NCBI GenBank assembly: GCA_040756875.1
Contig: JBFLYH010000002.1
Span: 981,246-1,045,245 of the forward strand
Source: a candidate division FCPU426 bacterium
Lineage (GTDB): Bacteria; Oederibacteriota; JAAXVQ01; JAUVAV01
Direction of reading: 5' to 3'
Length of the DNA: 64,000 nucleotides
Made by a program: the position numbers and the translations under genes. This document shows positions 54,101-64,000 of the stretch, one piece after another; position 1 is the first letter of the stretch; each line of letters starts with the position of its first letter. The notes under the pieces are model-generated. The model searched no databases. It was given only the letters and a program-made list of their open reading frames with translations, and was not told the origin of the DNA.

Positions 54101-57100
54101 GCCAGGAGTTGAATCAAGTTTTATCCAGCCTGCAGGACTACCGCCAGTTGAGCCGGATGAATGCCCAGGCTGATACCCTGCAAGACCTGCTGTCAGCGAA
54201 AGCGCTGTTGTGGCAGCAACAGAATCTGCAAGCCCAAGGGCTCGGAGCGGTCAAGACCCTCGAATCCCTGCTCGCCCAAACAGCCGGAATCCCGGGCAAA
54301 CCCTCCGGGCAAGTCTTCAGCCAGATCACCGCCACCCTGAGCCTGATGCAAAAGCTGACTGCCAACCAGATGCAATCCGCGGGATTGCTGCCAGGCCTTA
54401 TGGATCGGGAGTGCGGGATGCCGGCCAAAGCCGCGCTCCAAAAAGAATGGAGAGCCTGGCTGGACGGGCAGTTTTCCGCCCAGCAAGGCTTGGATTGGGC
54501 CGGCGGGCAGCTTCAATTAAGCACAGTGCTGTCAAACCCAGGGGCAGGCTGGCGGCAACAGACCAACGCCCTGGCCACTGGCATGCTGGAGAATCTGGTG
54601 GACCAGGCGGCTGAGCGCCAGATCAGCCTGGGCCTGGCTGAAGTGCAGCGCTTGAGCAACGAGGCGCGGGAACTGCTTTCAGCGCCTGTGCGCCAATTGC
54701 GCGCCGAACTGGGGCAATTGGGGCTGTTGGACCCAAGGCAGGATCAGGGGCCGGGCCTGAGTATCGTGTCCTGGGCGCAGCATTTCGTGCAGCAGGGCGT
54801 GGCCCAGGGCGTGGCGCAGGCCCTGGCCAGCCTGGAGCGGACGCAGGCCCAGTTCAGCAACCGCCTGGAGCGGGGCCTGCTGGAACTCGCGCGCGCCCAG
54901 GCCACCATGGCGATCAATGCCCTGAGCGGCCAATACGCGGGCCTGGCCGTTGAGGTGAAGCGCCTGTGGGAGGGCGTTGGGCCTGAGGCCGGCGAAGCGT
55001 TGAACCTGCAGGGATTGCTGAACGTGGCCCAGGACCAGGAGTTTCTGCAAACCTGGCAGGAAGATATCTTCAGCAAACTGGTGGCGGAGAATCCCTTGCA
55101 GGCTGACCTGGGACGGCTGGGCCAGGTTGCCTCCTCGCTTCAGGCTTTGATCGACCAGCCGGCCAGCCAGCTCGGCGACTGGCTGGTGAGGAGCGGAGTG
55201 AACCTGGGCGTGGAGCGGCTGCAGTCCCTGCAGGCCGAAGCCCAGAAGCTGCTGCACGAGGCTATGACCACGGGCGCGGTCAACGAGCTGCGGACGCGCC
55301 TGAATGCCGTTCTGCTCAAGTTGGACCAGGAAGCAGGCCGCTTGAGCCGTTATCTGGACCAGACCCTGGCCAAGCTTCCGTCCGGAGTGGTTCCCGCGGG
55401 CTTGCGGGACGCGCTGCGGGAATTGCGCGACCTGCCCGGCACCCTGGCTGCCGGGATCGACGGCCTCATGCAGGACGTGGAGAGTTACCTTGCCAACCAG
55501 GTGCTGCAGTCCGGATTTGACCGCCTGAACGCCATGCTCAACCAGTACGGCGGACAGGCGTCCTTGTGGGCCGTGGGCGCCAGGCTGCAATTGTCGCTGA
55601 CCGAGATTTCCAGCCTGGGCCAAACCGCGGTGGCGCAGTTGGAAGTGTCCCTCGCGGATCTGGGGACCGGAAATCTGACCGGTTTGTGGGAAAACGTGGC
55701 AGCCGGGCTCTCGGATTTCGGCGGGAACCTTCTGAACCTGCTGCAGGATTTCGTGGCTAGCGCGAGCCCGGTGGATTTGGGCGGGTTTCTCAACATCACG
55801 GGCCTGGCTGATTCGCTGTGGGCCTCGGCCGGCGAAGTGCTGGGGCAATTCACGGGCCTGTTCGAGCTACAGGTGCCAATGGCCGGCGATTGGTGGCAGG
55901 CAGACGAGCTGTGGCAGCAGTTGTCCGGCATTTTCAATGCGGAGAACTGGCAGCTTGATTTCTATCAGGCTGCGGACGGGTTCCTGCGCAATATCAGCGA
56001 AAACCTGGAAAACCTGCTCAACTCGGGTCTGGCCTGGGTGAACGACCGCTGGACAGAATACATGAACCAGGCGCGGGAATACTGGGACATCCTGGCCGGC
56101 GGGCCTGGCCGGTGGTGGGATGAACTGGCCAGCGGCCGCTGGGACCAGAGCCTGGGCAACCTGATGACGCAATACCTGCCGCCTGAATACCAGCCTGCTG
56201 TGAGCGCCCTGCAGCAGGTGCGCCTGGCGTTCAACGCGGACTTTCAGCTGAGCGCGGAGTGGATTACGAACATTTTGGACAACTTAAGCGCCTACCTGAG
56301 CGAGGACGCGCGGGCCGTGTACCAGCAGGTGCGCGAGTTATATGATACGGGCAGCGAATATTATTCCGCTGGCAGCGACATCCTCAACGCCATTTCGAGC
56401 GGGGATGTCACCAGCGTGCTGACCAACATCAGCCGCCTGGGCAGGTTTCATTTCAACACCGGCGGACAGATGTACCAGTGGGGCAAAGGCCGGGCCAATA
56501 AAAAAGGGAAGTACGACGGCCAGGCCCTGTCGGCTGCCAGCGAGGAAGAAGTGCTGGCAGCGTACGTCAATGCCCTCCCAGCCAGCATGCGCGAACAGGC
56601 CCTGCGGATGCTGGAAAACGGAACCCTGCCCGGCAGTAATCCCGAACGCGAAATCGACGTCGCGGACTACGACCCGGACGTGGACGGCCAGCCAGCTGGC
56701 CCGGCAGCCTATGAAGCCGCCCAGGAAGCTGACGCGTCTGCCACTTTGCCAGATGTAGCAGCCGCATCCGCTTCGGATCGTCACCCCGGCGTGCCTGAAG
56801 CCGGGGTCCAGGAGCAAACTCCCCCCCGCAGGTCCCCCTCTTTGCCAAAGAGGGGGCGGGGGGAGTTGGATAGTGGCTTAGGCGGGAACGACAGTCAAGG
56901 CTCAACAACCGATGAGGGTGATGCTTCTGCTGCCGGCACCCAGCCAGGCGGTGAAGGCGAATCCGGCCCCCCAGACCTCGGCCCGCCGCGCATGTCCGGC
57001 GTGCCCACCCCGCCGCCTGTAAAGCAGAGCTTGTTGGATAAGATGAAAAATGTATACACCAACCTAAATCCAGTTGGATTATCCAAGAACGCCGCCCAGG

Positions 57101-63025: not shown

Positions 63026-64000
63026 ATGAAGCGGATTATTGTTGGTATAATAGGATTAATGATGCTCGTCATATGTATTCGCGGGTTTTGGTATTATCCA
63101 TTGTTTCGAAAACCGCCTATTTTGGAAATGATCTCCGACGTCCCGTGTAATATTCCTTATATAAAACTTAAAAATCAAAAAGGTATTTTAAAAAGATATT
63201 TTGTTGTTATTGGCGATAAAAAGGCTTCCTTTCCAGATGCGGGGCAAAAAGGCTGGTCAGAATGGGCAAGTAGTCATGAGATATATATCGATAGCGTGAA
63301 AAATTGGATAAAGGTATTCATTGATGAAAAGTGGTTGATATTCAGAAAAAAAACAGCGTACCTATTCTACCAGCAACCTGGCGGGTTCAATCAATACACA
63401 GTATTATTCCGTCATAGATATCAGGGTGACAATGAAAAACTTAAAAATAAATACAATATTTATTTTATAGGGGATAGCATCACCCGGGGATTGTATGCGA
63501 TAAATGAAAGCAATAGTTATTCAGCGCTAGTGAACGCGAAAGCGGGCATGAAAGGTACGCCTGTAAAATATGCAATTAAAGGGATTGGGATTAGTGACAT
63601 AGATAAAACTCAAATATTATCGGATTTAACTAAAAATCAGCCAGAATTAATTATTATCGAGTTGGGTACAAATGATTGGAAGGAAATGGATATAGAGAAA
63701 TTCAAAAGGAAGTATGAGTCAATGCTCTCGGCGATAGTCGAAAACGCCAAAGGGACGAAGACAGTTTTACTTGGCCTTTGGGGTGGCTATAAAGCTCTGC
63801 CATATGACGCTGTCATTTATGATATAGCGAAGCACTATCAATATGAATATGTATATTTGGAAGATATTTATGAGGAAAGCGAATATCATAATGAGGAAAA
63901 CACCGCAACTTCTTTTGGACCTGCCGACTTTTACCATCCGTCAGATAAAGGTCATAGGGAAATTGCTAATAGGGTTATATCGGCGATTGTATCGCTTGAA
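63026..64000 (+). CDS. SGNH/GDSL-family hydrolase with N-terminal membrane anchor, 3'-truncated at window edge
   Basis: Hand-translated from ATG 63026 with no stop before the window end (absent from the ORF track); blocks FIGDSIT, ELGTND and DFYHPSDKGH. Confidence 0.6.
   Translation, partial: MKRIIVGIIGLMMLVICIRGFWYYPLFRKPPILEMISDVPCNIPYIKLKNQKGILKRYFVVIGDKKASFPDAGQKGWSEWASSHEIYIDSVKNWIKVFIDEKWLIFRKKTAYLFYQQPGGFNQYTVLFRHRYQGDNEKLKNKYNIYFIGDSITRGLYAINESNSYSALVNAKAGMKGTPVKYAIKGIGISDIDKTQILSDLTKNQPELIIIELGTNDWKEMDIEKFKRKYESMLSAIVENAKGTKTVLLGLWGGYKALPYDAVIYDIAKHYQYEYVYLEDIYEESEYHNEENTATSFGPADFYHPSDKGHREIANRVISAIVSLE

Follow-up and report, generated by a model that had tools for sequence, protein, structure and literature searches.

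An in-frame GC break near the 3' end of a giant FCPU426 gene as the probable site of toxin-tip exchange in a polymorphic toxin system

We analyzed a 64,000-nucleotide (nt) stretch of DNA (hereafter, the window) from a metagenome-assembled genome (MAG) of a candidate division FCPU426 bacterium (assembly GCA_040756875.1, contig JBFLYH010000002.1, positions 981,246 to 1,045,245 of the forward strand), the last 7 kb of which are markedly poorer in GC than the rest. Our results suggest, at a probability of roughly 80%, that a polymorphic toxin system swaps its toxin tips at the left edge of this low-GC segment. A native, high-GC, Sec-exported scaffold ending in PRMSGVPTPP would be joined there, in frame, to a horizontally circulating low-GC cassette made up of a serine esterase/lipase toxin domain of ~300 amino acids (aa), an anchored immunity protein of 166 aa, and a lipoprotein of 313 aa; judged from sequence, positions 57016–59364 are the predicted tip, immunity, and lipoprotein cassette. 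An earlier note on this DNA, made from the letters alone, had described the segment as a mosaic island of horizontally acquired cell-surface cargo. Our data support the foreign origin, the assignment of the products as secreted or membrane proteins, and the mosaic structure (three or more compositional blocks, plus a paralog remnant of 32 aa); however, the first 2.3 kb are more probably an interbacterial toxin cassette, and the left edge is unlikely to be the insertion edge of an island.

Compositional break within a 2259-residue open reading frame

The GC content is 0.649 between positions 1 and 57000 and 0.424 between 57001 and 64000, in agreement with the drop at ~57.0 kb claimed in the earlier note, and a maximum-likelihood two-segment scan of GC placed the change point at 57017. 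Before 57 kb, 1-kb windows have a mean GC of 0.649 (S.D. 0.035, minimum 0.555), compared with 0.350–0.512 past this point. The 30 genes upstream of the break have a GC of 0.655 ± 0.031 and a GC at third codon positions (GC3) of 0.838 ± 0.041, whereas the seven coding units past 57017 range from 0.37 to 0.51 in GC and from 0.32 to 0.60 in GC3 (z −5.8 to −12.7). Codon adaptation, which the note had proposed as a check, deviates in every gene past the break, with an index of the codon adaptation index type lying 3.6–7.2 S.D. below the upstream mean (z −3.6 to −7.2). Composition past 57 kb is also heterogeneous, as had been stated, with a GC of 0.44 in the toxin tip, 0.37 in the 166-aa gene, 0.51 in the lipoprotein gene, 0.50 in the gene with a type IX secretion system (T9SS) tail, 0.48 in the 277-aa gene, and 0.37 in both the 631-aa and the SGNH hydrolase genes. 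The gene at 60992–62887 (0.369) had been singled out as the most AT-rich; it ties with 57933–58433 (0.369) and the SGNH gene (0.366). All of these products carry a signal peptide, a lipobox, or transmembrane (TM) segments, just as predicted.

The break is not intergenic. It lies inside the open reading frame (ORF) 51157–57936, ~920 nt ahead of the stop codon, and GC3 within this 2259-aa gene runs at 0.67–0.84 along the whole scaffold, up to residue 1953, and at 0.39 thereafter. The protein across the break reads ...DLGPPRMSGVPTPP/VKQSLL... (slash at the break), directly behind a Pro-rich linker. The features of the locus are as follows.

51157–57015, + strand: putative polymorphic-toxin scaffold (ORF 51157–57936, 2259 aa, MEW6517382.1, AB1439_10825)
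56776–56875, + strand: double GC-rich hairpin in the linker coding sequence (A, 56783–56807; B, nested palindrome, 56817–56867)
56974–57015, + strand: junction homology block, encoding ...DLGPPRMSGVPTPP (PRMSGVPTPP, 56986–57015)
57016–57936, + strand: C-terminal toxin module of low GC, 306 aa, with a helical pair at its N terminus and then a compact predicted α/β-hydrolase
57598–57600, + strand: Ser2148 of the predicted triad, in VVAHSQGT
57748–57750, + strand: Asp2198 of the predicted triad, in KDPVP
57856–57858, + strand: His2234 of the predicted triad, in DYHDF
57933–58433, + strand: candidate cognate immunity protein, 166 aa (MEW6517383.1), with an N-terminal membrane anchor and an ATGA overlap with the toxin stop
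58423–59364, + strand: 313-aa lipoprotein (lipobox LTAC), with an 11-nt overlap with the immunity gene

From its N terminus, the scaffold consists of a signal peptide, a lipase-like domain (residues ~39–167), a helix-favoring, A/L/Q-rich region of ~1350 aa in which internal repeats were looked for and none were found, a Trp-rich segment, and a Pro/Gly-rich linker at residues 1800–1953. Residues 39–167 (positions 51270–51660) align weakly with secreted lipases (PDB entry 5h6b, E 0.2; a lead only), and their nucleophile motif reads GKGSGG where lipases read GHSQGG; this domain may be a catalytically dead lipase fold serving as an anchor or binding head. No scaffold relatives were found among 185,579 species genomes or JGI metagenomes, and the only homologs are P0005/L087 (71% at the amino acid level and 74.7% at the nucleotide level) and a fragment on contig L001. 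The L087 scaffold fragment is also high in GC (0.625), and the cassettes of that relative lie at 0.33–0.45. The ICD protein encoded in the window is at most 67% identical to that of any of the 185,579 species genomes, with best matches of 66–67% in many phyla. In the annotation of the FCPU426 MAG, the toxin, immunity, and neighboring genes are all hypothetical; the 631-aa protein described below matches MEW6517387.1 of this MAG at 100% identity.

Tip exchange at the junction, toxin module, and partner genes

A block of ~42 nt, present in one copy in the window, is common to three junctions: the one described above, that of the main gene on contig L001, and one upstream of an orphan cassette on L001. 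With PRMSGVPTPP it forms a demarcation motif at the scaffold/tip border; an orphan junction motif would read GACCTCGGNCCNCCNCGCATGNNCGGCGTNCCNACNCCNCC. Homology in blastn stops at 57015 (76.7% for the main junction and 85.7% for the orphan junction), 2 nt from the GC change point. Contig L001 opens within a homolog of the giant gene, of which it covers the 3' end, with the same pre-junction sequence as in the window. Past the junction, GC falls from 0.63 to 0.34, and a different low-GC C-terminal domain is followed by a different 182-aa ORF. The 3' part of the contig holds an orphan copy of the window's module (62% aa identity) and a 166-aa ORF (59% identical). Different C-terminal domains are thus found on a common scaffold in the window and in L001/L002, which stem from two or more other samples, were assembled independently, and repeat the scaffold, the motif, and the low-GC tip. 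P0001 is a free-standing 318-aa ORF starting with MSGVPTPP, as at the window junction, and a contig with an 85%-identical module also carries the 166- and 313-aa genes with their 11-nt overlap kept.

Because the break is in frame and falls at a motif common to relatives with other tips, we conclude that the left edge is most likely a domain-swap junction rather than an island edge. Alignment to relatives, advised in the earlier note as a way of defining the boundaries, places this edge at 57015, and the right end lies past 64000. Together, the scaffold/tip swap, the junction motif, the partner gene, and the orphan of the relative make up the anatomy of a polymorphic toxin locus and match its published definition (Jamet & Nassif 2015, PMC4436062). 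The junction block is presumably the recombination site for tip exchange.

The linker upstream of the junction contains the double hairpin, which occurs once in the 64 kb, ~150 nt from the junction. Folded as DNA, it has a ΔG of −32.8 kcal/mol (z −4.65), and its L001 equivalent (L001 positions 40–140) has a z of −4.85. The hairpin is ~95% identical to that of L001, whereas the flanking linker is ~75% identical or unalignable. On L001 (positions 1803–2879), as well as on L002 and the P0002 contig, a Y1 (PF01797) transposase gene lies between the resident and orphan cassettes; on L001, inverted repeats of 26 nt (92% complementary) flank it, and 8 nt separate its end from the orphan junction block. 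L001 and L002 also have a CCCCGG-TAAAGG-CCGGG hairpin 23 nt past the first immunity gene, beside this Y1 (HUH) element. Neither the post-immunity hairpin nor the Y1 element is present in the low-GC part of the window.

Against 5.8 billion clusters, a word index returned just four homologs of the last 306 residues of the giant protein. When 1.84 billion representatives were searched exhaustively with phmmer, 192 relatives of the module emerged, 93 of them at E ≤ 1e-10. In 100 near-full-length matches, on proteins of 197–3481 aa, the module ends at a median of 39 aa from the C terminus. Four large carriers are RHS-repeat proteins (P0046, P0068, P0077, and P0098), and others have no Pfam domains; on these unrelated scaffolds, similarity to the window protein is confined to the module. 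An AHSQG(T/S) elbow is almost universal among the relatives, and in an alignment of 31 sequences the Ser is invariant and the Asp (KDPVP) and His (DYHDF) are conserved at 90% or more, in canonical order. An AlphaFold2 (AF2) model built from this alignment was confident (an alignment of five sequences had given a predicted local distance difference test score of 44) and predicts an α/β-hydrolase fold, with a β-α-β core, a nucleophile elbow, and an ordered Ser-Asp-His triad, nearest to cutinases and lipases. The signal peptide and this terminal module make the 2259-aa product a secreted multidomain protein with a C-terminal toxic-type domain.

A direct PDB sequence search was empty, and a PDB profile search gave matches limited to the nucleophile elbow of cutinases and lipases. 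The window module matches no Pfam model and no Tle family; some relatives weakly match Tle3, DUF676, DUF900, or Cutinase (Tle3 in 2 of the 31, at 8e-5). A literature search with the AHSQGT motif retrieved glucagon papers only.

The earlier note had pointed to a candidate immunity pair behind the giant gene. For the 166-aa gene this was a good call, as it and the toxin module are inherited together at all levels of divergence; the 313-aa lipoprotein accompanies toxin and 166-aa gene in close relatives only. In 10 of the 12 loci with DNA continuing past the module, an ORF of 156–173 aa with a lipobox or TM segment lies directly behind it, starting −40 to +5 nt from the toxin stop. The orphan module in L004 is followed by a 59%-identical 166-aa partner, and in L006 a 22%-identical partner lies behind a 43%-identical free-standing toxin, so that partners of 59 and 22% identity track toxins of 62 and 43%. 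In phmmer, the window protein recovers its distant partners with E values of 7e-8 and 7e-7. The family can be aligned over its full length and has a common L(I/V)GK..RT motif; it matches no Pfam family. Its position directly downstream and its co-inheritance make the 166-aa product a candidate for a protective role. The lipoprotein, the third cassette gene in close relatives, is absent behind distant family members; in L004, its first 24 aa are 75% identical before the contig ends. It matches no Pfam or NCBIfam family and is a candidate accessory or second immunity protein.

The L006 pair (Logan SRR30224771) consists of a signal-peptide module and its own 156-aa lipoprotein partner, surrounded by numerous small ORFs on a contig of 57.5% GC, indicating that toxin and partner also circulate without a giant carrier. 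On most other carriers (L089–L093, L097, and L001), GC decreases from scaffold to module to immunity gene (e.g. 0.55–0.56, 0.47–0.48, and 0.45–0.47), although L091 and L097 are exceptions, with an immunity gene no lower in GC than the module. This gradient suggests that the cassette keeps its own composition across hosts.

Proposed mechanism, alternative explanations, and known systems

We propose that the ~42-nt block is a likely substrate for recombination by which one tip-immunity cassette would be swapped for another, with the displaced cassette staying downstream as an orphan, as seen in the relative. The toxin would attack ester bonds in the envelope lipids of neighboring cells from the periplasmic side, and the periplasm-facing immunity protein would shield the producer and its kin. 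The analysis shows the architecture, the junction, the exchange of tips between alleles, the modeled fold with its triad, and the inheritance of toxin and immunity gene together; toxicity, the lipid target, the periplasmic site of action, and the delivery route are inferred, the site being suggested by the periplasm-facing partner, as in Tle/Tli pairs. If so, an in-frame GC break close to the 3' end of a giant gene could be taken as a marker of a toxin-tip swap point, and this locus would offer a first view of interbacterial antagonism in the uncultured candidate phylum FCPU426. It would also define an AHSQG esterase toxin family (192 members or more, with RHS proteins among the carriers) and a lipoprotein immunity family of ~165 aa. 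The principle of exchangeable toxin tips is well known; this carrier has almost no relatives, and its toxin and immunity families have no Pfam model. The scaffold has no recognizable secretion domain, so delivery may follow a new route. Both the junction motif and the hairpins are testable handles on cassette exchange.

Several observations weigh against a polymorphic toxin system. The scaffold of the 2259-aa protein matches no Pfam or NCBIfam family and no known trafficking domain, and library scans of the ORFs revealed no secretion apparatus within the 64 kb. Allelic tip exchange on this scaffold comes from one comparison lineage (L001/L002), and no orphan cassette, second junction motif, or alternative tip/immunity pair lies between 57.9 and 64 kb. 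Cutinase-like folds also hydrolyze polymers, so the lipid substrate is conjectural, and no feature ties the genes at 59.4–64 kb to the toxin locus. As for the missing orphan, orphan tip-immunity modules are common but not obligatory (PMC4436062).

A more novel reading, which we consider unlikely, is an undescribed class of polymorphic-toxin carrier limited to FCPU426 and its relatives, in which tip exchange goes beyond plain homologous recombination and is helped by hairpin-recognizing Y1 (HUH) transposases. The carrier may then be a Sec-exported helical fiber of ~1950 aa whose head resembles a dead lipase and which has a demarcation motif of its own, and the recognition structures may be the linker double hairpin and the post-immunity hairpin beside the Y1 transposase of the relative. 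Y1 (HUH) transposases use single-stranded DNA hairpins. A Y1 transposase and remnants of an alternative tip or immunity gene were sought in the window, and none were found.

An integrase-mediated genomic island, that is, a single foreign block of more than 7 kb starting at ~57 kb with its integrase or tRNA site past the window, is unlikely. Low GC does last to the window end, leaving the right boundary unseen, and the genes are functionally unrelated with atypical codon use. Against such an island, the left boundary lies in frame within a gene, at a motif common to relatives with other tips, and the segment comprises at least three compositional blocks plus a gene remnant. As the earlier note had reported, no tRNA was found in the window, nor any integrase among the scanned ORFs, and these ORFs gave no transposase match either; repeats in 56.5–64 kb are short, chance-level matches with no flanking repeat. 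An integrase-type island may account for the part from 59.4 to beyond 64 kb alone.

It is similarly improbable that the locus is no weapon at all but encodes a very large surface protein whose C-terminal catalytic heads can be exchanged, the present one being a cutinase-like esterase that would degrade environmental polymers, with the small downstream protein acting as an anchor, chaperone, or secretion helper. Cutinases and polymer esterases are indeed the best structural neighbors, no secretion weapon apparatus lies nearby, and the neighboring genes concern the cell surface. However, the module also caps RHS proteins, which are dedicated toxin carriers, and its anchored partner diverges fast and is coupled at the start codon, as an immunity protein would be. 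Orphan tip-partner pairs are moreover kept downstream, and some relatives weakly match Tle3 phospholipase effectors.

Two further explanations are less credible still. An assembly or binning chimera, with a foreign low-GC contig fused to a high-GC contig at ~57017, would fit a MAG source and a GC jump of 22 points, the classic symptom. It is nevertheless very improbable because the frame runs for 306 codons past the join into a well-folded domain and because the independent L001 and L002 assemblies repeat scaffold, motif, and low-GC tip; contigs of the same lineage also carry homologous cassettes. In many genomes, genes for membrane proteins and glycan polymerases are often rich in AT, and the low GC of the cassette is kept in two diverged host lineages, but a local bias of mutation or selection (on membrane proteins, for example) instead of horizontal origin can hardly explain a switch as abrupt as ~2 nt from the homology breakpoint, a module family in many unrelated backgrounds, and upstream polytopic membrane glycosyltransferases in the same window at GC3 0.80–0.88.

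Compared with known systems, the proposed polymorphic toxin resembles Rhs and CdiA toxins in its big conserved scaffold, short demarcation motif, variable toxic-type C terminus, and adjacent immunity gene (PMC4436062; PMC3482391). It also resembles them in the displaced orphan pair of the relative that keeps a short homology block, in a tip GC below that of the scaffold, and in a tip common to unrelated scaffolds. Unlike Rhs proteins, it has no RHS/YD repeats (no RHS_repeat match on the 2259-aa protein at E ≤ 0.1); unlike CdiA, it has no two-partner secretion, hemagglutinin, or FHA domains and no CdiB-like partner in Pfam and NCBIfam scans of the protein and its neighbors. No PAAR, VgrG, or LXG was found, and the motif is PRMSGVPTPP rather than VENN, (Q/E)LYN, or PxxxxDPxGL. 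The scaffold further differs from those of Rhs and CdiA in being helix-rich, with a Sec signal and almost no relatives, in a host of the candidate phylum FCPU426.

Like Tle/Tli pairs of type VI secretion systems (T6SS), the locus is predicted to combine a serine α/β-hydrolase with a GxSxG elbow and a periplasm-facing lipoprotein or anchored immunity protein. Unlike Tle effectors, the module matches none of the Tle Pfam families, including Tle1–4, its fold is much smaller, of cutinase size, and no T6SS genes lie within 64 kb. α/β-Hydrolase toxin domains are documented in polymorphic toxin systems: Zhang et al. 2012 (PMC3482391) named Tox-ABhydrolase-1, -2, and -3, of which -2 and -3 were described as domains, uncharacterized until then, that many classical polymorphic toxins carry; for type 3, the best profile matches were lipases. 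The comparison of the window module with types 2 and 3 is by description only. The type 3 immunity proteins, Imm66 and Imm69, are cytoplasmic-type domains, in contrast to the ~165-aa lipoprotein family described here.

The locus is also similar to Neisseria MafB/MafI, with a Sec-signal toxin with a variable C terminus, an immunity gene, and a compositionally distinct chromosomal "island". Unlike MafB, it has no DUF1020/MafB N-terminal domain, and its scaffold is approximately six times larger. MafB/MafI islands carry orphan arrays, whereas none lies within this window.

Rest of the low-GC segment and upstream neighborhood

The features past the proposed toxin cassette are as follows.

59457–60050, + strand: 197-aa secreted protein with a T9SS type-A sorting-domain-like C terminus; GC 0.495
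60149–60982, + strand: 277-aa secreted protein with a signal peptide, possibly a fiber or adhesin; GC 0.475
60992–62887, + strand: 631-aa polytopic membrane protein (MEW6517387.1) with at least six TM segments; GC 0.369
62904–62999, + strand: 32-aa paralog remnant, 47% identical to the C terminus of the 277-aa protein (tblastn E 2.8e-5)
63026–64000, + strand: membrane-anchored SGNH/GDSL hydrolase (Lipase_GDSL_2, 1.9e-15), incomplete at the window end; GC 0.366

These genes form at least two further low-GC blocks (59457–60982 and 60992 onward) of surface or glycan genes. According to our model, T9SS-tail, fiber-like, glycan-cluster-type membrane, and SGNH esterase genes would have been acquired separately from the cassette. 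They may belong to one acquired island, the right end of which lies past the window. The matches of the 197-aa protein to Por_Secre_tail (1.5e-4) and TIGR04183 (2e-4) both fall short of curated cutoffs, as does that of the 277-aa N terminus to NCBIfam Bdello_MAT_N, the Bdellovibrio mosaic adhesive trimer fiber (7.6e-9); the last ~100 aa of the 277-aa protein look lectin-like by eye only. The paralog remnant lies 17 nt past the 3' end of the 631-aa gene, with its reading frame closed upstream, and indicates layered insertion or deletion. A promoter and terminator scan was uninformative, with fewer terminators than expected from shuffling.

The 631-aa protein belongs to an uncharacterized family with only 11 homologs (best non-self identity, 29%). 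Distant homologs are tandem paralogs in glycan-synthesis clusters, beside GT2, methyltransferase, epimerase, and UDP-glucose dehydrogenase genes. The idea that it is a paralog of the other GT-C proteins of the window was rejected on comparison. A prophage origin of the segment was likewise rejected: a phage tblastn with the 277-aa protein found nothing, and the PHROG matches of the SGNH gene are confined to the SGNH domains of tail proteins. PADLOC also returned nothing.

Upstream of the toxin locus, positions 27369–50878 are dense in large GT-C-type membrane proteins, namely a TMEM260-like protein, a zinc-ribbon DUF2298 protein, and three PMT_2 proteins, of which two carry C-terminal PA14 domains. 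With GT2, GT1, three methyltransferases, and an NHL-repeat protein, they make up a long surface-glycosylation region beside the toxin gene. The genes at 59.4–64 kb continue the surface-glycan theme of 27–51 kb and extend a hypervariable cell-surface region. At the other end of the window, positions 115–7079 hold a BatA–D type (aerotolerance-like) operon, with a DUF58-like ORF (by eye), BatD, a TPR-SH3 protein, and two VWA proteins, one with a BatA N terminus and one with TPR.

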